Shown one piece after another: positions 1,741 to 61,781 of a stretch of DNA of 64,000 nt. Within the stretch, counting starts at the first letter, position 1, and each line of letters begins with the position of its first letter. The notes beneath the pieces are model-generated. The model worked only from the letters and a program-made list of their open reading frames with translations. It searched no databases and had not been told where the DNA came from. The stretch is from Escherichia phage CJ20: sequence record MT533174.1; one strand, 5' to 3'. Both the position numbers and the translations under genes were made by a program.

Positions 1741-4455
1741 ATGCAAGAATTTTATTTAACTATCGAACAAATCGGTGACAACCTGCTCGAACGATATATT
1801 GACAAGAATGGTCATGAACGTGTTCGTGAAATCCCTTATGCTCCATGCTTGTTTATGCACGCCCGAGAAGACCAGGCTGCAAAGTATACAGACATCTATA
1901 ATAAAGGTTGTGTGAAAAAAGAATTCGATTCCATGCGTGATGCATCCCAGTGGATGAAGCGAATGAATGACATGGGTCTCGAAGCTATGGGTATGGACGA
2001 CTTTAAACTCGCATACTTGTCCGACCGTTACCCACACGAAATCAAATATGATTCAAGTAAAATCCGTGTTGCTAACTTCGATATCGAGGTGACATCTCCC
2101 GATGGGTTCCCCGAACCGTCTGAAGCACGTCACCCTATTGATGCCCTGACGCACTATGATTCGGTAGACGATAAATTCTATGTCTTTGACCTTTTGGACT
2201 CACCATACGCCACTGTGGAGCAATGGTCTATTGATATTGCTGCTAAGCTGCAGGAAGATGGTGGTGATGAAGTCCCGGAAGAAATCCTGGAAAAAATTGT
2301 TTATATGGCTTTCGATTCAGAAGAAGAAATGCTCCAGCAGTATTTGGTATTCTGGAACGAGAAAACTCCGGTTATGTTAACTGGTTGGAACATCGAGAAG
2401 TTTGATATTCCATATATCTACAACCGCCTTAAAAATGTATTTGGTGAAGCTACAGCAAAACGTCTGAGCCCGCATCGTCGTACAAAAGTTAAGGTCATTA
2501 ACAACGGCTTTGGTGAAGAACAAGAAATCATTCAGATTCTGGGTATCTCTGTTCTGGATTATCTGGACCTGTATAAAAAGTTCAGCTTCACAAACCAACC
2601 GTCTTATTCGTTGGATTATGTTGCGGAATCTGAACTGGGTGTTGGTAAACTCCCGTATGATGGCCCAATTTCTAAACTGCGCGAATCAAATCACCAGCGG
2701 TATATTTCTTATAACATCATCGACGTTTATCGTGTTGTGCAGATTGACCGTAAGCGGCAGTTTATTAACCTGAGTCAGTCAATGGGTTATTATGCAAAAA
2801 TGCAGATTCAGTCTGTATTCAGCCCAATCAAAACTTGGGATGCGATTATCTTTAACAGCCTGAAGACTCAAAACAAAGTCATTCCGGAAACCAAATCGCA
2901 TGTTCGTCAATCGTTCCCTGGTGCATTTGTTAAGGAACCTATTCCGAACGCATACAAATATGTAATGAGCTGTGACTTAACATCTCTGTATCCGAGCATC
3001 ATCCGACAGATTAACATCAGTCCAGAAACGATTGCCGGTTCATTTGCTCCAGCCCAGATGTATGAATACATCGCAGGAACTGCTGACCGTCCATCTGATA
3101 CATTTAGTTGTGCTCCAAATGGTATGATGTATTTTAAAGATGTTGCGGGTATTATTCCGACAGAAGTCACCAAGGTGTTTAATCAGCGTAAAGAACACAA
3201 AGGCTATATGCTTGCGGCTCAACGTAATGGTGAACTGATTAAGGAAGCTCTGCGTAATCCAGGAACTGGTACAACCGAGCCTGAAGTTGATTATCGTCAT
3301 GACTTTGATGACAATATGAAAACAACCTTGCATGGTCTGAATCAAACAGTCCTAAATGGTATGTTGTACAAAGCGCAGATGGAAGAAGTTGCAGGCATGA
3401 CCGCGCAGATTAACCGTAAACTACTTATCAACAGTTGTTATGGTGCTCTGGGTAATATCTGGTTCCGTTACTTTGACCTGCGAAATGCAACCGCGATTAC
3501 ATCTTTCGGACAACTTGCATTGCAGTGGATTGAGCGTAAAGTTAACGAATACTTCGATAGTGTTTGCGGGACAAGCGGCGAAACTTATGTGTTCTATGGC
3601 GATACTGACTCCATTTATATCCAGTGCGATAACCTGATTAAAAAGGTTGGTGGCGAATCTAAATTCCGCGATACAAACCACCTGGTTGACTTCATGGACA
3701 AGTTCGCGAAAGACCGTCTGGAACCGGCAATCGATAAAGCTTTCCGTGAGCTGGCTGAATACATGAACAACAAACAGCACCTTATGTTTATGGACCGTGA
3801 GGCGATTGCATGTCCTCCACTGGGTTCTAAGGGTGTTGGTGGGTTCTGGACGGCGAAGAAGCGTTATGCGTTGAACGTGTACGATATGGAAGGTACACGA
3901 TATGCTGTTCCGAAACTGAAAATCATGGGTCTGGAAACTCAAAAGTCGAGTACTCCAAAGGCATGTCAGAAAGCTCTGAAAGAATGTATCCGCCGTATGC
4001 TGCAAGAAGGTGAAGAATCTCTGCAGACATACTTCAAGGAATTCAATAAGGAATTTAATGAGCTTAACTACATGACCATCGCAGGTGTATCATCGGTTAA
4101 CAACATCCAGAAATATAATGAAGGCGGTTTCCCTGGATTTAAGTGTCCGGCCCATATCAAAGGTGTGCTTGCATATATGCGTGCAACTAAAGGTCTGAAG
4201 ACTGTTCCGCAAATCATGGAAGGGGAAAAGGTGTATGTACTTCCTCTTAAAGTCGGCAACCCGTTTGGTGAAACCGTGATTGCATGGCCATCTGGGATTG
4301 AACTCCCGATTGAAATCCGTGACCAGGTTCTGCAGTGGATGGATTACAGTGCCTTGTTCCAGAAGACTTTTGTTAAGCCATTAACAGGTTTCTCTGAAGC
4401 TGCAAAGGTTGATTACGAAAAGAAAGCAACTCTTTTTGATATGTTTGACTTTTAA
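1741..4455 (+). CDS. 43: DNA polymerase gp43 (family B)
   Basis: 904 aa; exonuclease motif FDIEV, polymerase motifs SLYPSII, YGDTDS; end-to-end similarity to remembered T4/RB69 gp43. Confidence 0.97.
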   Translation: MQEFYLTIEQIGDNLLERYIDKNGHERVREIPYAPCLFMHAREDQAAKYTDIYNKGCVKKEFDSMRDASQWMKRMNDMGLEAMGMDDFKLAYLSDRYPHEIKYDSSKIRVANFDIEVTSPDGFPEPSEARHPIDALTHYDSVDDKFYVFDLLDSPYATVEQWSIDIAAKLQEDGGDEVPEEILEKIVYMAFDSEEEMLQQYLVFWNEKTPVMLTGWNIEKFDIPYIYNRLKNVFGEATAKRLSPHRRTKVKVINNGFGEEQEIIQILGISVLDYLDLYKKFSFTNQPSYSLDYVAESELGVGKLPYDGPISKLRESNHQRYISYNIIDVYRVVQIDRKRQFINLSQSMGYYAKMQIQSVFSPIKTWDAIIFNSLKTQNKVIPETKSHVRQSFPGAFVKEPIPNAYKYVMSCDLTSLYPSIIRQINISPETIAGSFAPAQMYEYIAGTADRPSDTFSCAPNGMMYFKDVAGIIPTEVTKVFNQRKEHKGYMLAAQRNGELIKEALRNPGTGTTEPEVDYRHDFDDNMKTTLHGLNQTVLNGMLYKAQMEEVAGMTAQINRKLLINSCYGALGNIWFRYFDLRNATAITSFGQLALQWIERKVNEYFDSVCGTSGETYVFYGDTDSIYIQCDNLIKKVGGESKFRDTNHLVDFMDKFAKDRLEPAIDKAFRELAEYMNNKQHLMFMDREAIACPPLGSKGVGGFWTAKKRYALNVYDMEGTRYAVPKLKIMGLETQKSSTPKACQKALKECIRRMLQEGEESLQTYFKEFNKEFNELNYMTIAGVSSVNNIQKYNEGGFPGFKCPAHIKGVLAYMRATKGLKTVPQIMEGEKVYVLPLKVGNPFGETVIAWPSGIELPIEIRDQVLQWMDYSALFQKTFVKPLTGFSEAAKVDYEKKATLFDMFDF

Positions 4456-4457
4456 GT

Positions 4458-4487
4458 GTTTACAACGGCAATGGATTGCCGTATGAT
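4458..4487 (+). promoter_or_regulatory. Early sigma70-type promoter (GTTTACA -35, TATGAT -10) with a 6-bp hairpin in the spacer
   Basis: TTTACA 4459-4464, 17-bp spacer containing CGGCAA-TGGA-TTGCCG, TATGAT 4482-4487; upstream of imm. Confidence 0.5.
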
Positions 4488-4524
4488 TACCCCATCAACT
4501 GATGAATAACTTGAGGATATTAAA

Positions 4525-4767
4525 ATGGAAGCATTAATTGCGGGTACTGTTGTTCTTGGTGCAGGTTCTTTCTTCCTGGCTGCACTGGCATATTTTCTGC
4601 CGTGGATTATCGCGCTACTGCGTGGAACCAAAAGTAATTGCGGAATCTTCTTTGTTAACCTTCTGTTAGGTTGGACAATGGTTGGATGGTTTATTGCATT
4701 TATCTGGGCACTTGTTGCTGAACGTAAATCAAACGCACAAGTAATTATCATCAAGGAAGCAAAATGA
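4525..4767 (+). CDS. imm: Superinfection immunity protein Imm-like (two transmembrane helices)
   Basis: 80 aa with two hydrophobic helices; immediately downstream of gene 43 as in T4. Confidence 0.65.
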   Translation: MEALIAGTVVLGAGSFFLAALAYFLPWIIALLRGTKSNCGIFFVNLLLGWTMVGWFIAFIWALVAERKSNAQVIIIKEAK

Positions 4768-4907
4768 AGATAATTACAATTATTGTACTGATTGCATTTT
4801 TTAGTATGTCAATCTATTGGGCAATAATGACTCCACATATGATTCCAACTTTAATTTTGGGTTGGGTATTTTTGGGGCTCCAAGCTCGCTATGAATGTTT
4901 TAATTAG
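4764..4907 (+). CDS. Small membrane peptide (47 aa)
   Basis: ATGA overlap with imm stop; single hydrophobic helix; below ORF-track size cutoff. Confidence 0.35.
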   Translation: MKIITIIVLIAFFSMSIYWAIMTPHMIPTLILGWVFLGLQARYECFN

Positions 4908-4915
4908 GAAGCAAA

Positions 4916-5419
4916 ATGAAAAAGTTAGCTATCGCAGCTGTTATGCTGCTATCTGGTTGTGCTTACCAGGGTGATGTTGTTAATGCCAACGAGATTGGTA
5001 AAGCGCGAATTGCTGCAGACCGTCAGGTGCATAATGGTTCCTTTGATTTCAAAGGTGGTACTGGACTTATCTACAAACGCGACAACAATCAATGCGGAAA
5101 CAACTGCGCGAAATATGCTCAACAAGAAATTGAGTACAAACGCGAGCAAGCTGCGAAGCATGACGAAATCATTGCCAAGCTGGAAGCAGAAACCAAGCGA
5201 CAAAATGACCTGGATACTGTTAACCAGATTTCACAGGTCTGCATGTCATATATCAATATGCAGATAAACATCATGCGCGCAGAAGCTTATCAGGCAGCGG
5301 AGACGGGTTCTCCAAAAGCTAATGAGTACCGCGATATGTATCAGCGTTCTGCTCAAAACCGTCTGAGCTATATTAATAAATGTGTAGCTAAAGAGAAAGC
5401 ACGCCAAGGTATTAACTAA
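4916..5419 (+). CDS. Predicted lipoprotein, function unknown
   Basis: 167 aa; signal peptide ending in lipobox LLSGC; coiled-coil-like Lys/Glu/Gln-rich body; SD GGAAGCAAAATG. Confidence 0.6.
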   Translation: MKKLAIAAVMLLSGCAYQGDVVNANEIGKARIAADRQVHNGSFDFKGGTGLIYKRDNNQCGNNCAKYAQQEIEYKREQAAKHDEIIAKLEAETKRQNDLDTVNQISQVCMSYINMQINIMRAEAYQAAETGSPKANEYRDMYQRSAQNRLSYINKCVAKEKARQGIN

Positions 5420-5440
5420 ACAAACTGCGAGAAGAATATT

Positions 5441-5569
5441 ATGATTGGTATGTTATTGATTAGTCTATGGCTGTTGTCTGCATTTGGTATTGGGTTTATG
5501 TACTGGTGGGACAAACGCCAGACCCGTAAGATTGTTGAACGTGCAATTAATCGTGGATTCAATCGTTAA
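5441..5569 (+). CDS. Small membrane peptide (42 aa)
   Basis: ATG at 5441, hydrophobic N-terminus, basic C-terminus; short, no homology evidence. Confidence 0.3.
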   Translation: MIGMLLISLWLLSAFGIGFMYWWDKRQTRKIVERAINRGFNR

Positions 5570-5595
5570 TTGCTCTAAAAATACAGTGATATAAT
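5568..5595 (+). promoter_or_regulatory. Putative MotA-dependent middle promoter for uvsX
   Basis: MotA-box-like TTGCTCTAA (TGCTC 5571-5575) placed 19 bp before TATAAT 5590-5595. Confidence 0.4.
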
Positions 5596-5648
5596 TATCC
5601 TATCTTAAACCTGTGAGAAAAATATAATGGTGCCTATGGAAAAAATGA

Positions 5649-6827
5649 ATGTCTATTGCAGATTTGAAATCCCGTTTGATTAAAGCTTCTACATCCAAAA
5701 TGACCGCGACTCTTACCAAGTCCAAGTTCTTTAATGATAAAGATGTAGTTCGTACAAAAATCCCGATGCTGAACATTGCAATCAGCGGTGCACTAGATGG
5801 TGGCATGCAGTCAGGTTTGACTATTTTTGCTGGTCCGTCAAAACACTTTAAATCCAATATGGGTTTAACGATGGTCTCTGCATATATGAACAAATACCCC
5901 GATGCAATCTGTTTGTTCTATGATTCAGAATTTGGTATCACAGAAGCCTATCTTCGTGCAATGAAAGTTGACCCGGAGCGTGTTATCCACACACCAATCC
6001 AGTCGGTTGAACAATTGAAAGTTGATATGGTTAACCAGCTTGAAGCAATTGAGCGTGGTGAAAAAGTCATTATCTTTATTGACTCAATCGGTAACATGGC
6101 ATCGAAAAAAGAAACAGAAGATGCGATGAACGAAAAAGTCGTTGGCGATATGACTCGTGCTAAATCCCTGAAATCTCTGTTCCGTATTGTTACTCCATAT
6201 TTTAGCATCAAGGATATTCCTTGTGTCGCGGTTAACCATACAATCGAGACGATTGAGATGTACAGTAAAACCGTTATGACCGGCGGTACAGGTGTTATGT
6301 ATTCCGCGGACACCGTATTCATTATCGGCAAACGCCAGATTAAAGAAACTGGTAAAGAACTTGAAGGCTTCCAATTTGTTCTGAACGCCGAAAAATCTCG
6401 TATGGTCAAAGAGAAAAGTAAATTCTTCATTGATGTAAAATTCGATGGCGGTATTGACCCGTATTCTGGCCTGCTTGATATGGCAATGGAAATCGGATTT
6501 GTGGTGAAACCAAAAGTTGGTTGGTATAACCGTGAATATCTTGATGTTGAGACCGGTGAAATGGTCCGCGAAGAAAAATCATGGCGCGCAAAAGATACTA
6601 ACTGCACCGAATTCTGGGGCCCGCTGTTCAAACACGAACCTTTCCGTGATGCAATCAAACGCCATTACCAACTGGGTGCAATCGATAGCAATGCTGTTGT
6701 TGATGCCGAAGTTGATGCGCTTATTGCCTCCAAGGTTGAAAAATACACTGCTCCTGAAGGTAAGACAAAACCGTCCGCGGCAGATATCGAAAACGATTTA
6801 GATATGATGGAAGACCTTGATGAATGA
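5649..6827 (+). CDS. uvsX: UvsX RecA-like recombinase
   Basis: 392 aa; Walker A-like GPSKHFKS; strong similarity to remembered T4 UvsX. Confidence 0.95.
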   Translation: MSIADLKSRLIKASTSKMTATLTKSKFFNDKDVVRTKIPMLNIAISGALDGGMQSGLTIFAGPSKHFKSNMGLTMVSAYMNKYPDAICLFYDSEFGITEAYLRAMKVDPERVIHTPIQSVEQLKVDMVNQLEAIERGEKVIIFIDSIGNMASKKETEDAMNEKVVGDMTRAKSLKSLFRIVTPYFSIKDIPCVAVNHTIETIEMYSKTVMTGGTGVMYSADTVFIIGKRQIKETGKELEGFQFVLNAEKSRMVKEKSKFFIDVKFDGGIDPYSGLLDMAMEIGFVVKPKVGWYNREYLDVETGEMVREEKSWRAKDTNCTEFWGPLFKHEPFRDAIKRHYQLGAIDSNAVVDAEVDALIASKVEKYTAPEGKTKPSAADIENDLDMMEDLDE

Positions 6828-8642: not shown

Positions 8643-8673
8643 TATCCCATCAACTACTGATGAGGATAATAAA

Positions 8674-55916: not shown

Positions 55917-58172
55917 ATGCAAGTACAAAAAAGTAGTGGCGTATCTCAAGATTTTGATGGCCAGAAAATTATTAAAGTTCTTTCCTGGTCATGTGAAGGA
56001 ACCAATATCGACCCGTATGAATTATACGAAACAATCAAACCACATCTGCGCGATGGTATGACTACTCGTGATATTCAGACGGTTATCATCAAAGTGTCTG
56101 CTGGGCTTATCTCGGTTGAAGAACCAGATTACCAATACGTTGCAGCGAAGGCTACGATGTTTGCTCTGCGTAAAGATGTTTATGGCCAGTTTGAGCCACG
56201 TTCTTTTATTGACCAGATTTCTTATTGTGTTAATGAAGGCAAATATGACCCGGAGCTGTTGTCAAGCTACTCGGCTGAAGAGATTACTTATCTGGAATCT
56301 CGTATCAAGCACGAACGCGATTTTGACCTGACTTATGCAGGCGCGATGCAGTTGAAAGAGAAATACCTGGTTAAAGATAAAACCACTGGGAAAATCTACG
56401 AGACTCCACAATTCGCTATCATGGCTATCGGAATGGCACTGCACCAGGATGAACCAACGGACCGTCTGAAGCACGTTTGCCGTTTTTATGATGCAGTATC
56501 CACTCGACAGGTTTCGTTGCCTACACCTATCATGGCGGGCGCCAGAACACCTACCAGGCAGTTCAGTTCCTGCGTGGTTATCGAAGCTGCTGACTCCCTG
56601 AAGTCAATCAATAAGACTGCCAATTCAATCATCGAATATATCAGTAAGCGTGCGGGTATCGGCATCAACGTTGGTATGATTCGTGCCGAAGGTTCGAAAA
56701 TCGGTATGGGTGAAGTCAAGCATACTGGTGTTATTCCGTTCTGGAAACATTTCCAAACGGCTGTTAAATCCTGTTCACAAGGTGGAATCCGTGGCGGCGC
56801 TGCTACTGCTTATTATCCTATTTGGCATTTGGAAGTTGAAAATTTACTCGTTCTGAAGAACAACAAAGGCGTTGAAGAAAACCGTATCAGGCATATGGAC
56901 TATGGTGTCCAGTTGAATAACCTGATGATGGAACGACTGGCCAAGAATGATTACATCACTCTGTTTAGTCCACACGAAGCTGGCGGTGAATTGTATTATT
57001 CATATTTTGATAACCCGGATAAATTCCGTGAGTTATATGAAGCCTTAGAAAAAGACCCGACAGTTCGTAAGAAACGTATCAAAGCAAAAGATGTATTTGA
57101 ATTATTCATGACCGAACGTTCCGGTACAGCCAGGGTTTATCCGCAGTTCGTCGATAACGTGAATGACTACACTCCGTTCATCCGCGATAAGGCTCCGATT
57201 CGTCAATCAAACCTTTGCTGCGAAATTGCAATCCCGACTACTGATGTGAACAGCGAAGACGCTGAAATCGGATTGTGCACCCTCTCTGCATTTGTTCTGG
57301 ATAGTTTTGACTGGCAGGACCAAGATAAGATTAACGAGCTAGCCGAAGTTCAAGTTCGTGCTCTTGATAATCTGTTGGACTACCAGGGTTATCCGGTTAA
57401 AGAAGCTCTGAAAGCCAAAAAACGCCGCAACCTGGGTGTTGGGGTTACTAACTATGCTGCATGGTTGGCAAGCAATTTCGCTTCCTACACTGATGCAAAC
57501 GATTTAACGCATGAACTGTTCGAGAGATTACAATATGGCCTTATCCGTGCATCAATCAAACTCGCCAAAGAAAAAGGACCTTGCGAATATTATTCAGACA
57601 CTCGTTGGGCTCGAGGCGAATTACCTATCGACTGGTACAATAAAAAGATTGACCAAATCGCAGCTCCAAACTACGTTTGTGACTGGGCGCAGTTGCGGGA
57701 AGACCTGGTTGCGCATGGCATCCGTAATAGCACATTATCAGCACTTATGCCTTGTGAGTCATCTTCCCAAGTTTCTAACAGTACAAACGGTATCGAACCT
57801 CCGCGTGGACCAGTCTCTATTAAAGAGTCAAAAGAGGGTTCCTTTAATCAAGTCGTGCCCAATATTGAGCACAATAAAGGATTGTACGATTACGCATGGG
57901 TGCTAGCTAAGCAAGGTAACAAACCTTATCTGACACAAGTCGCGATTATGTTGAAATGGATTTGTCAGTCAGCATCAGCCAATACATATTATGACCCGCA
58001 GAATTATCCGAAAGGAAAAGTTCCGATGTCAGTTATGCTTGACGACCTGATGTACTTCTGGTATTTTGGTGGAAAAAACCTTTATTATCATAACACTCGA
58101 GATGGTTCCGGAACAGACGATTACGAAATCGAAGCTCCTAAAGCAGAAGACTGCTCCGCCTGTAAACTTTGA
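55917..58172 (+). CDS. nrdA: Ribonucleotide reductase large subunit NrdA
   Basis: 751 aa; N-terminal ATP-cone; class I RNR active-site region NLCCEI. Confidence 0.95.
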   Translation: MQVQKSSGVSQDFDGQKIIKVLSWSCEGTNIDPYELYETIKPHLRDGMTTRDIQTVIIKVSAGLISVEEPDYQYVAAKATMFALRKDVYGQFEPRSFIDQISYCVNEGKYDPELLSSYSAEEITYLESRIKHERDFDLTYAGAMQLKEKYLVKDKTTGKIYETPQFAIMAIGMALHQDEPTDRLKHVCRFYDAVSTRQVSLPTPIMAGARTPTRQFSSCVVIEAADSLKSINKTANSIIEYISKRAGIGINVGMIRAEGSKIGMGEVKHTGVIPFWKHFQTAVKSCSQGGIRGGAATAYYPIWHLEVENLLVLKNNKGVEENRIRHMDYGVQLNNLMMERLAKNDYITLFSPHEAGGELYYSYFDNPDKFRELYEALEKDPTVRKKRIKAKDVFELFMTERSGTARVYPQFVDNVNDYTPFIRDKAPIRQSNLCCEIAIPTTDVNSEDAEIGLCTLSAFVLDSFDWQDQDKINELAEVQVRALDNLLDYQGYPVKEALKAKKRRNLGVGVTNYAAWLASNFASYTDANDLTHELFERLQYGLIRASIKLAKEKGPCEYYSDTRWARGELPIDWYNKKIDQIAAPNYVCDWAQLREDLVAHGIRNSTLSALMPCESSSQVSNSTNGIEPPRGPVSIKESKEGSFNQVVPNIEHNKGLYDYAWVLAKQGNKPYLTQVAIMLKWICQSASANTYYDPQNYPKGKVPMSVMLDDLMYFWYFGGKNLYYHNTRDGSGTDDYEIEAPKAEDCSACKL

Positions 58173-58210: not shown

Positions 58211-59389
58211 ATGAGTACAGTTTTTAATACCACTCCAGTGGATGTTTTAGCTGAGCCGATGTTTTTTGGTTCAGGATTGGGGATTGCCCGTTATGATATC
58301 CAGCGCCATAAAGTTTTCGAAGAATTAACAGAAAAGCAATTATCATTCTTCTGGCGACCTGAGGAAGTAAACCTGATGATGGATGGAGCCCAATTTAATA
58401 AGCTTCCTGAACATCAACAAAATATTTTTACCAACAACCTGAAATACCAATCACTTCTGGATAGTATTCAGGGTCGTGCTCCAGCTGCAGCATTAGCCGC
58501 ATTAGTTTCTGACCCGAGTCTTGATACATGGATTCAGACCTGGACATTCAGCGAGACAATTCACTCTCGTTCTTATACGCACATAATGCGAAATCTCTAT
58601 ACGGACCCGGCGAAGGTATTCGACGAAATCCTGTTAGATGATGCAATCATGAAGCGTGCAGAATCCATTGGTCATTACTATGATGATGTTCTGAATAAAA
58701 CTCGTCAATGGCAAAACCAGATTGCTTTTGTTGAACTGGCCAAAGAAACTCCCGAAGCGGACGAACGTTTGGAACGAGCTATCAAACAAGAAGCTATCGC
58801 CAAACGAGTATTGATGAAGTCTCTTTATCTCTGCCTGCATGTTATTAACGCGCTGGAAGCTATTCGTTTTTATGTATCTTTTGCATGTACTTTCAACTTC
58901 CATAAGAACATGGAAATCATGGAAGGTAACGCGAAGATAATGAAGTTCATCGCCCGTGATGAACAGCTCCATCTTAAGGGGACCCAATATATTCTTCGTC
59001 AGCTGCAGACTGGTGTTGACGGTGACGAATGGGTTAAAATTGCTCACGAATGTGAAGCAGAAGCCGCAGCTATTTTCATGGAAGTCAATCGCCAGGAAAA
59101 GGAATGGGCTGTACATCTGTTTAAAGATGGTGGACTCCCCGGGCTGAGCGTCGAGATTCTTAACCGGTTCATCGATTACCTGACGGTTTCTCGTATGAAG
59201 CAATGTGGTCTCCCGTGTGAAATCGTGTTAGAATCTACTAAGCACCCGATTCCATGGATTCGCGAATATCTTAACTCTGATAATGTGCAATCTGCACCAC
59301 AAGAAGTTGAGTTGTCTGCTTACCTGGTAGCCCAGATTGACAATGACGTCGATGAGAATGTTCTTGCTGGTTTCCGTAAATATCTATAA
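58211..59389 (+). CDS. nrdB: Ribonucleotide reductase small subunit NrdB, uninterrupted
   Basis: 392 aa continuous ORF with di-iron ligand motifs; no intron. Confidence 0.93.
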   Translation: MSTVFNTTPVDVLAEPMFFGSGLGIARYDIQRHKVFEELTEKQLSFFWRPEEVNLMMDGAQFNKLPEHQQNIFTNNLKYQSLLDSIQGRAPAAALAALVSDPSLDTWIQTWTFSETIHSRSYTHIMRNLYTDPAKVFDEILLDDAIMKRAESIGHYYDDVLNKTRQWQNQIAFVELAKETPEADERLERAIKQEAIAKRVLMKSLYLCLHVINALEAIRFYVSFACTFNFHKNMEIMEGNAKIMKFIARDEQLHLKGTQYILRQLQTGVDGDEWVKIAHECEAEAAAIFMEVNRQEKEWAVHLFKDGGLPGLSVEILNRFIDYLTVSRMKQCGLPCEIVLESTKHPIPWIREYLNSDNVQSAPQEVELSAYLVAQIDNDVDENVLAGFRKYL

Positions 59390-59391
59390 GG

Positions 59392-59411
59392 AAAGGGCTT
59401 CGGCCCTTTTT
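59392..59411 (+). terminator. Rho-independent terminator (AAAGGGC-TTCG-GCCCTTT + T run)
   Basis: Hairpin 3 nt after nrdB stop, TTTT tail. Confidence 0.65.
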
Positions 59412-59415
59412 GCCC

Positions 59416-59826
59416 ATGAAACAAATCGCTGATGAATACAGTTTTATAAAATACGCGGAGTTAGAGTTAGTCGATGGTAAAATCCCTATCCTTACTCTCG
59501 CAAACAAGAAAAATGTTATCTATGCTATTTCAGTTGATGATGAACTAGTGTATATTGGTAAGACGAACAACCTTAAGAAGCGTATCAACTATTACCGGAC
59601 TGCGATTAACCGAATCGACCAGACGAGTGATTCAAACAAATCCCGGATGATACATGAAGCTTTACAAGAAGGTAAAAAGGTGGTATTCTATGCACGACAA
59701 TGTTTCAATCTGTCAATGACCAATGAACTTGGCACAATGTCAGTCGAAACGATGTCTCTGGAAGAGCCGATGTTCATCAAGCTTTTTAATCCCCCGTGGA
59801 ATTACCAACATAAGGTGAAGAAATGA
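59416..59826 (+). CDS. denA: Endonuclease II DenA (GIY-YIG)
   Basis: 136 aa from ATG 59416; VIYAI...LVYIGKT..L.KRINYYR GIY-YIG core; matches remembered T4 DenA. Confidence 0.85.
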   Translation: MKQIADEYSFIKYAELELVDGKIPILTLANKKNVIYAISVDDELVYIGKTNNLKKRINYYRTAINRIDQTSDSNKSRMIHEALQEGKKVVFYARQCFNLSMTNELGTMSVETMSLEEPMFIKLFNPPWNYQHKVKK

Positions 59827-60959
59827 TTGAATTATATGATAACTTAATGAAGCTTTGCGCCGAATCCGATAAAGGTAAGTTTTTCTATACGGATTTTGTT
59901 TCTCCATTTGAAACTAAGTTCCGCATCTTCAGCTATAACTATGCTTCCTATAGTGATTGGCTTCTTGATGATGCACTGGAGTGTCGTGGCATTATGTTTG
60001 AAATGGATGACAATGGTCCAGTTCGCATTGCTGCCCGTCCTATGGAAAAATTCTTTAATCTGGGTGAGAACCCAATGACCATGGACCTTAACCTTGATGA
60101 AGTTGTCCTGGTTACTGCAAAAGCTGATGGTAGCTTGGTTTCTACTTATATGGACCAGACCAATATTGCTTTTAAATCCAAAGGGTCAATTAAAAGCTCC
60201 CAAGCTGCTGAATCTCTGCAGGTGTTTAAACAACCGCACCGTGAAGCGTTCAGGGCTCGTGTGACTGAAATCACTGAAGCTGGTTATACATGCAATATGG
60301 AATATGTTGCACCAACCAACCGCATTGTTTTGCCTTACCAGGAACGTGACCTGATTTTACTGAACGTTCGTCATAATGAAACTGGCGAATATATTCCTTA
60401 TCCTGAGCTGTTCAAAGATGCTGCACTCCGTCCTTTCCTGGTTGAAGCATATGACCTGGTGAGCATTGAGAATGTTCGTGGTATGAAAGAGATTGAAGGT
60501 TTCGTCTACGAGCTGGCAAGTGGTCAGAAGTTCAAGCTGAAAACAGAATGGTATTGTGCTCTGCACCATACTAAAGACTCCATTAATAATAATGAGCGCC
60601 TGTTTGAAGTTGTTGTTGCCGGCGGCGCAGATGATGTTATTGCCATGTTTACTGGTGATGATTATGCTCGCGAAAAAGTTAATGCCTTTACCATTGTACA
60701 TCTGGATTATCTGTCTAATACGCTGGGATTGTTGCTTGATGCCCAGAAACAGTTAGCAGGAAAAGACCGTCGCGAGTTTGCGATTAAAGGTCAAGAGTTG
60801 TGTAAACCATACCCGGGATTGTTCTCCGTATTAATGAACACATATCAACGCCCGCAGGAAACCGAACAAACGATTGCTCAAATCAATAAAGTTTTCCTTA
60901 AAAATCATAAACTTTACATTCCGTCGGACTACCAAGCGGAAGTAATCCTTCCTGAATAA
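59823..60959 (+). CDS. rnlA: RNA ligase 1 RnlA (gene 63)
   Basis: 378 aa; nucleotidyltransferase lysine motif TAKADGSLVSTY; N-terminus matches remembered T4 Rnl1. Confidence 0.9.
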   Translation: MIELYDNLMKLCAESDKGKFFYTDFVSPFETKFRIFSYNYASYSDWLLDDALECRGIMFEMDDNGPVRIAARPMEKFFNLGENPMTMDLNLDEVVLVTAKADGSLVSTYMDQTNIAFKSKGSIKSSQAAESLQVFKQPHREAFRARVTEITEAGYTCNMEYVAPTNRIVLPYQERDLILLNVRHNETGEYIPYPELFKDAALRPFLVEAYDLVSIENVRGMKEIEGFVYELASGQKFKLKTEWYCALHHTKDSINNNERLFEVVVAGGADDVIAMFTGDDYAREKVNAFTIVHLDYLSNTLGLLLDAQKQLAGKDRREFAIKGQELCKPYPGLFSVLMNTYQRPQETEQTIAQINKVFLKNHKLYIPSDYQAEVILPE

Positions 60960-60970
60960 TAAAAAAGGGG

Positions 60971-60999
60971 TGTACAAGCCCCTCCTTTCTATACATAAT
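60971..60999 (+). promoter_or_regulatory. Early sigma70-type promoter
   Basis: GGGGTGTACAAGCCCC hairpin containing TGTACA 60971-60976, CATAAT 60994-60999, leader CCATCAACTACTGATGAGGA 61004-61023. Confidence 0.5.
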
Positions 61000-61030
61000 G
61001 GTTCCATCAACTACTGATGAGGACTAAAAC

Positions 61031-61264
61031 ATGTTAAACTTAATTACAAATGAAAGAGTTACACAGGCATATGGTGACAGTAATGACGGAATCTATGTCT
61101 ACAAGGGAGACCGCCGGATTGGTTTCATTACTGACCTGAAGGCCAAATTGTTAAAAGAACTGAAAGCTCAAACAGGTGATTCTGGGTTTAGAGCAAGAGC
61201 CAAAAAGAAAGATGAACGCCTGGGTGCCAACTCTTTTGGTCCCCGGGGTTACAACCGCTACTAA
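61031..61264 (+). CDS. Truncated paralog of the Alc N-terminus (77 aa)
   Basis: N-terminal 45 aa (GDSNDGIYVYKGDRRIGFITDLKAKL) parallel Alc (GDRHDGIYVYKGTKKIGLMTDLRKKL) encoded immediately downstream. Confidence 0.5.
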   Translation: MLNLITNERVTQAYGDSNDGIYVYKGDRRIGFITDLKAKLLKELKAQTGDSGFRARAKKKDERLGANSFGPRGYNRY

Positions 61265-61277
61265 TGAGGAAAATATT

Positions 61278-61781
61278 ATGGATATGCAACTGATTTCAAA
61301 TGAAATGATTGTCAATGAATATGGTGACCGTCATGACGGAATTTATGTCTATAAAGGGACCAAGAAAATTGGTCTCATGACTGACTTGCGGAAAAAACTC
61401 GCCTCCAATAAAAAGTTGAAGGCGAAACAAAAAGAATATCGCGATAAAAAATCAGAAGAGCGGAAAGAAGCACTGCATGAATCTGTTCCTGAAATGGTTG
61501 ACTTCTTAAAGAACCATTTGGTTAAATATGATGCAGAAGTGTTCATCAATCAGACCCAACCTAATGTGCATATCAATGGATGTGTTTGTTATGTTGTGGT
61601 TGAACCCCTGACACTTCAACACCGCCTGGGAATTAAACACCCAGTGTTAACCCAGGATGATATGGCGGATGAAGTTGGTAATCAGTTCCGCATTTCAGCA
61701 TCTGACAGTACAAATCACATCCTCCTGAATGGTTTATCCCAGGATGATATTGTTGAGGTAATCATCAAGTTATGCAAATAA
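61278..61781 (+). CDS. alc: Alc, inhibitor of transcription on cytosine-containing DNA
   Basis: 167 aa from ATG 61278 (SD GAGGA); position between rnlA and pseT as in T4; sequence recalled as Alc-like. Confidence 0.8.
   Translation: MDMQLISNEMIVNEYGDRHDGIYVYKGTKKIGLMTDLRKKLASNKKLKAKQKEYRDKKSEERKEALHESVPEMVDFLKNHLVKYDAEVFINQTQPNVHINGCVCYVVVEPLTLQHRLGIKHPVLTQDDMADEVGNQFRISASDSTNHILLNGLSQDDIVEVIIKLCK

Follow-up and report, generated by a model that had tools for sequence, protein, structure and literature searches.

The stretch of DNA analysed here (the window, 64,000 nucleotides) belongs to a T4-like member of the genus Gaprivervirus (SP18/VR7/VR20 group), and a 1.1-kb query placed around the feature under study matched 33 phage records over its full length at 92.7–98.5% identity. 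The region shares its neighborhood (rnlA, alc, and pseT.3) with the alc locus of T4, which carries an early promoter at the equivalent position. Between rnlA and alc lies a short open reading frame, ORF77 or alcB, whose product is referred to here as AlcB. The features of the locus are the following:

55917–58172, + strand: nrdA
58211–59389, + strand: nrdB
59410–59826, + strand: denA-like GIY-YIG gene
59823–60959, + strand: rnlA
60966–60983, + strand: stem-loop AGGGG-TGTACAAG-CCCCT, G+C-rich and terminator-like, just past the rnlA stop, with the promoter −35 box in its loop
60971–60999, + strand: early sigma-70-type promoter (−35 TGTACA at 60971–60976, 17-nt spacer, −10 CATAAT at 60994–60999; 9/12 consensus positions matched)
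61000–61030, + strand: 5′ leader of ORF77 and putative start of duplication copy 1 (core ATCAACTACTGATGAGGA at 61006–61023, Shine-Dalgarno (SD) sequence GAGGA at 61019–61023, and a small CAUCA/UGAUG hairpin)
61031–61264, + strand: ORF77 = alcB, ATG to TAA (stop included), 77 aa, truncated Alc paralog
61031–61165, + strand: codons 1–45 of ORF77, the Alc N-terminal module (helix 7–14, beta-hairpin 22–32, and the start of the long helix)
61166–61261, + strand: codons 46–77 of ORF77, a basic, Gly-rich tail, predicted to be disordered and apparently remodelled from the Alc long helix
61246–61277, + strand: second leader copy, GGGTTACAACCGCTACTAATGAGGAAAATATT, where duplication copy 2 putatively starts; the final five ORF77 codons (GYNRY) and the stop lie in it, as does the SD of alc
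61278–61781, + strand: alc, the putative parent gene, 167 aa, full-length inhibitor of host transcription; codons 1 to ~72 (61278 to ~61493) would form duplication copy 2
3′ of alc, + strand: pseT.3 and pseT.2 (Rz-like spanins)

ORF77 encodes a fragment-type paralog of Alc and not an Alc orthologue. Its product aligns with the Alc encoded downstream at 48% identity over 64 positions (BLASTP, E = 2e-16). The Pfam ALC profile (PF17527) recognizes it with 42.5 bits (cutoff 25, E = 7e-11) through profile positions 3–62 of 177 only; the downstream alc product reaches 166 bits over positions 1–176 of the same profile. The full-length Alc architecture, in which an N-terminal module (N-module), a long helix, and a C-terminal alpha/beta domain are joined in about 165–170 aa, is not present in ORF77. 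Compared with the 167-aa Alc of T4 (alc/unf, PF17527), the 77-aa product is missing the C-terminal domain entirely and the long helix for the most part. Homology is confined to the N-terminal ~60 residues of the T4 protein, and the new basic, Gly-rich tail bearing NSFGP is found in ORF77 only. These results bear out a preliminary description of this DNA, which had placed a truncated paralog of Alc, its tail basic and diverged, between rnlA and alc; residues 46–77 are indeed basic and rich in glycine (pI 10.5, 8 Lys + Arg, and 5 Gly). The likeness to Alc, placed at that stage in the first 45 residues, is real and extends further than was stated: with BLASTP and Pfam it is detectable to about residue 63, the last stretch being a weak resemblance (KKKDER vs. 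KKSEER).

As a gene, alcB is not new. It has already been annotated in relatives and is represented in PHROGs, as a truncated variant of a known family, and nothing in the present results points to an unusual mechanism. The 77-position profile phrog_17715 matches ORF77 from end to end (positions 1–77, E = 2.9e-53), and the alcb product of Shigella phage SP18 (YP_003934864) is 100% identical to the ORF77 protein. The SP18 annotation of 2010 described alcb as “similar to N-terminal region of bacteriophage JS98 Alc” and named the full-length gene “alca”; the same gene is entered as VR7ORF243c in phage VR7. The alcb records offer a similarity-based name only (“inhibitor of host transcription”), and a literature search turned up no functional work on alcb or on the duplication of alc in Gaprivervirus. 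What is new here concerns the origin of alcB, the selection acting on it, its tail motif, and its distribution. Two peculiarities of the public records were encountered in this region. In the entries of pEC-M719-6WT.2, vB_YenM_P8, and DCP80, alc is called from an upstream GTG (61176–61781, 189 aa) and overlaps ORF77 in another frame, which is an annotation artefact. In the record of phage 212, the product names look shifted by one gene.

According to Kashlev et al. (1993), as cited in PMC8076793 and PMC7824862, Alc terminates RNA polymerase elongation on dC-DNA and not on modified DNA, and the host beta subunit is needed for this activity. Structures were modelled as monomers with AlphaFold2, using a 24-sequence alignment for Alc. 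The Alc model (pLDDT 92.5) comprises a helix at residues 8–15, a beta-hairpin at 23–33, a 47-residue helix at 34–80, and a C-terminal alpha/beta domain at 87–166. In the ORF77 model the N-module is kept (pLDDT about 90 over residues 11–40), the helix is shortened, and the tail has pLDDT values below 50 (residues 52–62 and 65–77), which suggests that it is disordered. All N-terminal residues that are invariant in the family (I6, G16, D20-G21-I22, G32, and D36-L37 in Alc numbering) are retained in ORF77 and in its divergent short paralogs. Comparison of the ORF77 model with viral structures by Foldseek returned Alc-family members only, with the N-module in no other context. A sequence search of the PDB with Alc found no relative, and the tail of ORF77 matched no known family or fold in Pfam, PHROGs, or Foldseek.

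Of all parts of Alc in Gaprivervirus, the C-terminal domain that is missing from AlcB is under the strongest constraint (pN/pS 0.018), and it would appear to be needed for Alc activity. Phage T4GT7 has been described as a strain with a spontaneous alc mutation (PMC12115623). Its alc, which is unannotated in the T4GT7 record (KJ477686), differs from that of T4 by G36D and H115R. Aspartate is the family consensus at position 36 and H115 lies within the conserved HRLGI motif, and H115R is the likely inactivating change as judged from the sequence.

Upstream of ORF77, the early-promoter-like site and the recurring leader that had been pointed out before are both in place: TGTACA and CATAAT are separated by 17 nt, and the leader core ACTACTGATGAGGA occurs in four exact copies in the window (seven at up to two mismatches, against 0.34 expected). 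The consensus match alone is a weak indication of a promoter, since the scan finds such sites barely more often than in shuffled sequences (11 vs. 7.8); it is the position that lends support. An early promoter of the GTTTAC type also follows the rnlA stop in T4, where GTTTACAAG ... TATAGT lies between rnlA and alc, in two metagenomic lineages (L014 and L016), and in the metagenomic relative L017, which is free of the duplication described below. In addition, the promoter at 60971–60999 is nearly invariant among 13 relatives. Folding gave −10.2 kcal/mol (z = −2.3) for the hairpin at 60966–60983 and placed the small CAUCA/UGAUG hairpin of the leader directly before the SD.

The promoter had been described as ORF77's own, a reading that does not hold: because T4 and L017 carry an early promoter at the equal place before alc, and alc has no promoter motif of its own inside ORF77, it is best taken as the ancestral alc promoter, now shared by both genes. 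The alc start lies 13 nt past the ORF77 stop, and the gap measures 10–13 nt in all three lineages (this one, L014, and L016). Within ORF77, no sigma-70-like site on the + strand, MotA box, or late-promoter motif was found that could serve alc. Given the 13-nt gap and this result, ORF77 and alc look like one early bicistronic unit. Forced translational coupling through a sequestered alc ribosome-binding site was also considered and is ruled out, as folding placed that site and the alc start in unstructured RNA (z = +1.3).

The simplest model for the origin of ORF77 is a tandem duplication of ~247 nt that took in the alc leader and ~72 codons. In the DNA alignment, the 32 nt before the ATG of ORF77 and those before the ATG of alc are identical at 21 positions in a fixed register. 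Upstream of the SD, 13/19 nt agree in the same manner (binomial P = 1.3e-4), a match equalled by only 17 of the 63,980 19-mers of the window. The offset from copy to copy is 247 nt. This geometry accounts for where ORF77 ends, because its last five codons and its stop fall in the second leader copy; the stop TAA abuts TGAGGA, which serves as the SD of alc. Descent of ORF77 from alc would then run to about codon 72, and the duplication geometry makes the tail a probable remodelled descendant of the Alc long helix, with no frameshift involved. The word “inserted”, used at first for the position of the ORF, is thus better replaced by tandem duplication including the alc leader, given the 13/19 agreement upstream of the SD (P about 1e-4). 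A neighbour-joining tree built from residues 1–62 (no bootstrap values) places the short forms in one clade outside the Alc proteins of their own genomes. Because they group in this way, a single ancient duplication is indicated, and neither repeated events nor ongoing conversion. alcB would accordingly go back to a single birth, in an ancestor shared by Gaprivervirus and the two related metagenomic lineages.

For the analysis of selection, the region was aligned from 13 relatives and the window, giving 14 sequences. ORF77 is intact in 14/14 of them, has no internal stops, and occupies the same position in all 13 relatives, where its start codon, SD, and promoter are conserved as well. Across the 14 sequences, mean pN/pS is 0.117 for ORF77 and cannot be told apart from the values of alc (0.120) and the rnlA C-terminus (0.105); pseT.3 was left out of this comparison owing to a frame or alignment problem. 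The tail of ORF77 has a pN/pS of 0.047, with ten polymorphic codons that vary synonymously only vs. two that change an amino acid, and at codon 72 two nucleotides differ without altering the encoded Arg (CGG to AGA).

In the phage collection, tblastn found 33 records with a match of at least 90% identity and 34 with a match over at least 80% of ORF77; about 760 further phage records match ORF77 through their single Alc only. Both metagenomic lineages, whose Alc is 75–77% identical, carry an ALC-family ORF of 77 or 78 aa between rnlA and alc, 10 nt upstream of alc, and in a lineage whose Alc is 63% identical, alc comes next after rnlA with no short copy. Comparison with relatives, which had been proposed as a check on presence or absence, therefore finds the gene in 13/13 relatives and the two metagenomic lineages and shows it to be absent beside the more distant Alc. 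The divergent short proteins are about 45% identical to ORF77, so that AlcB changes much faster than Alc between lineages (45% vs. 76% identity). Across four divergent short sequences, 27 columns are invariant, including the family-wide N-module residues. Those in the tail are G52, F53, R63, G65, N67, S68, F69, G70, P71, and N75, and they define the motifs GF (52–53), G-x-NSFGP (65–71), and a terminal N-[KR]-[FY]. The short-form tails have a pI of 10.5–11.6 and contain 5–7 glycines, whereas the corresponding Alc segment has none.

An exhaustive phmmer search with ORF77 against 1.84 billion representatives returned 11 matches. Six of these are long (645–1414 aa, with 3–12 matched stretches) and were set aside as repeat or compositional artefacts; the four that were scanned matched many unrelated Pfam families, with almost no stretch significant by itself. 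A 63-aa match (P0032) was tried as a candidate second short family and turned out to be a truncated T4-type Alc. Searches for short-paralog patterns in IMG/VR and JGI metagenomes yielded Gaprivervirus-type copies only, and on this sampling alcB appears confined to Gaprivervirus and its near relatives. A separate observation concerns an ENA metagenome contig (P0002) on which ORF77 is 75 aa long: it keeps 95% identity over residues 1–55 and then runs out of frame, through either genuine loss or faulty assembly.

Sequence diversity is distributed unevenly around the junction of the two genes. Positions 61243–61460, which cover the 3′ end of ORF77 and alc codons 1–60, exist as two divergent haplotypes in Gaprivervirus genomes. 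pS is 0.33 for alc codons 1–60 vs. 0.065 for codons 61–167, and 13/60 Alc residues differ. This pattern points to a tract of mosaic recombination whose end lies within alc. The alc N-terminal haplotypes assort freely with AlcB variants: all four combinations occur among the relatives, with no co-variation. That the divergent Alc N-terminal allele came from ORF77 by gene conversion was considered and discarded: it is closer to the Alc of the L014 lineage than to ORF77, and ordinary mosaic recombination fits it better.

Taken as a whole, the evidence argues that AlcB is under selection and is a real functional gene. Our preferred reading, to which we assign a probability of roughly 55%, is that AlcB is a selectively maintained small early protein, a co-expressed Alc N-module that tunes Alc-dependent shut-off. 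Sequences and models show that AlcB is homologous to Alc, stems from one duplication whose geometry can still be read, has been under purifying selection, is encoded beside alc, and contains only part of the Alc domains; from these findings we infer the expression of AlcB, its binding partner, and the direction of any effect on Alc. In this proposal, the upstream copy would have kept the N-module of Alc, that is, the short helix, the beta-hairpin, and the start of the long helix, while the remainder of that helix turned into a basic, Gly-rich, probably disordered tail with NSFGP. AlcB and Alc would be made together from the ancestral alc early promoter. Because the whole C-terminal domain is missing, AlcB most likely cannot itself terminate transcription. 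It would act through the binding target of the N-module, either host RNA polymerase or Alc itself, since AlcB keeps exactly the part of Alc in which its only family-wide invariant residues are found and lies just ahead of Alc on the same putative transcript. AlcB could then tune shut-off by Alc, as a competitor or a partner made alongside it, and its basic tail, rich in glycine and aromatic residues, may contact nucleic acid. The role of a modulator or decoy of Alc, suggested in the preliminary description, is plausible. A tight AlcB–Alc pairing is disfavoured by the free assortment of their alleles together with the faster change of AlcB. Among plant transcription factors, some short paralogs have lost all of a larger regulator except its interaction domain and target that regulator or its partners; they are known as microProteins or small interfering peptides. 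Like them, AlcB is a truncated paralog with one module retained that would be co-expressed with its parent, and the comparison is meant as an analogy only.

A serious rival, possible though we would not bet on it, is that AlcB has become an independent, neofunctionalised small early protein in which the N-module is only a fold or docking piece, the function resides in the NSFGP tail, and Alc is not modulated at all. Binding to nucleic acid or the nucleoid, or to some other host protein, would be possible roles. The tail is the most constrained part of ORF77 within the genus (pN/pS 0.047), its motifs are invariant across divergent lineages and absent from Alc, and its composition (pI 10.5–11.6, with 5–7 Gly vs. 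0 Gly in the ancestral Alc helix) has been remade; the lack of co-variation between AlcB and Alc N-terminal alleles points the same way. Yet a protein freed from Alc would hardly be expected to retain every family-invariant residue of the N-module or to remain in tight bicistronic order with alc in three lineages, both of which argue for an Alc-linked role, and the tail has no known family or fold that would lend such a function substance.

The remaining explanations dispense with the protein, and both conflict with the selection on its amino-acid sequence. If alcB were maintained purely for an effect in cis, as a leader ORF whose translation brings ribosomes to the alc start or stabilizes the mRNA, the abutment of its stop on the alc SD and the gap of 10–13 nt in all lineages would find a ready explanation. 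This is nevertheless quite improbable in view of a pN/pS of 0.12, the synonymous CGG to AGA exchange at an Arg codon, and amino-acid motifs that are kept between lineages whose DNA has diverged. Moreover, the alc start is unstructured and has a good SD of its own, leaving no obvious need for coupling, and T4 and other relatives express alc without such an ORF. The least credence of all is given to a non-functional remnant of a recent partial alc duplication drifting towards loss, an option raised in the preliminary description. The copy is partial, it is restricted to a narrow clade, and a frameshifted version exists on P0002. Purifying selection (pN/pS 0.117, with the frame intact in 14/14 sequences) and deep conservation reject it: a length of 77–78 aa and the NSFGP motifs have been kept where Alc itself diverged by about 25%, and the start codon, SD, and promoter are conserved.

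The gene content of the genus provides a further lead. Gaprivervirus is reported to lack the hmC-forming enzyme (dCMP hydroxymethylase) and to keep alc, denB, denA, and dCTPase, and an unknown DNA modification has been proposed for it (PMC12115623, PMC8056088); among the Tevenvirinae coliphage genera tabulated in PMC12115623, it is alone in lacking this enzyme. Between gene 43 and uvsX, T4 has the order imm.1-imm-42-beta-gt-segA. The corresponding place in the window, 4455–5649 (imm.1–segA in T4), contains the following genes:

4525–4767: imm homologue
4764–4907: 47-aa membrane ORF
4916–5419: 167-aa lipoprotein-like ORF, with no Pfam match

No homologue of gp42 (dCMP hydroxymethylase) or beta-gt was found anywhere in the 64-kb window, and its gene content agrees with the published lack of an hmC pathway in the genus. 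Alc without gene 42 has also been reported for other phages, e.g., the Acinetobacter phages ZZ1 and 133 (PMC8056088). Such Alc-positive, gene-42-less phages appear to have no second alc copy, as the number of additional tblastn places about equals the Gaprivervirus record count. A tie between AlcB and a changed DNA chemistry is attractive but unproven. Its strongest version holds that AlcB is a dedicated Alc regulator, an antagonist or a specificity adaptor, which evolved in the one Tevenvirinae lineage to have lost the hmC pathway while retaining alc, denB, and dCTPase, and which takes the N-module site on RNA polymerase or on Alc. We regard this version as unlikely. If it were true, AlcB would temper or retarget Alc, so that phage DNA could still be transcribed when transcription of host DNA is stopped, and a phage “microprotein” controlling a transcription terminator would have been born by tandem duplication of the 5′ end of that terminator's own gene.

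The locus has wider interest. Alc is a classic host shut-off factor, and a natural fragment consisting of its N-module could be a tool to separate Alc functions; binding of AlcB to RNA polymerase or to Alc would identify the role of that module. The restriction of alcB to a clade reported to lack the hmC pathway, yet retaining Alc, suggests a testable link between Alc regulation and the proposed DNA modification. The mechanism is inferential, but the origin and regulation of alcB can be stated with confidence, and they make it a clean, datable gene birth in a T4-like genome, by tandem duplication of a leader and a 5′ coding region.

The regulatory region upstream of alcB has counterparts elsewhere in the window. 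An early promoter (GTGTACAAG ... −10), the invariant 18-nt leader ATCAACTACTGATGAGGA, and a spacer near TAAtAAAATG precede four genes on the + strand, at 8653, 16438, 20557, and 61010. This four-copy arrangement could be a mobile regulatory (PeSL-like) cassette or a shared translational control element. PeSL (promoter-early stem-loop) cassettes of T4-type phages were reportedly described by Arbiol and colleagues in 2010. In the passages of Comeau et al. 2014 (PMC4122927) that deal with them, they combine a stem-loop with an early promoter. As in a PeSL, the stem-loop of the window stands directly 3′ of the preceding gene, together with an early promoter and between genes. The cassette is also repeated at several early genes and adjoins a difference in gene content, which may parallel the PeSL copies whose recombination is associated with gene-content plasticity. 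Unlike the PeSL case, the rearrangement seen here is a probable tandem duplication that starts in the leader, downstream of the promoter, and no PeSL–PeSL exchange; the conserved 18-nt leader is likewise absent from the description of PeSLs in those passages. Within the window, the promoter and leader recur four times, but the arms of the stem-loops differ, and the duplication junction falls in the leader.
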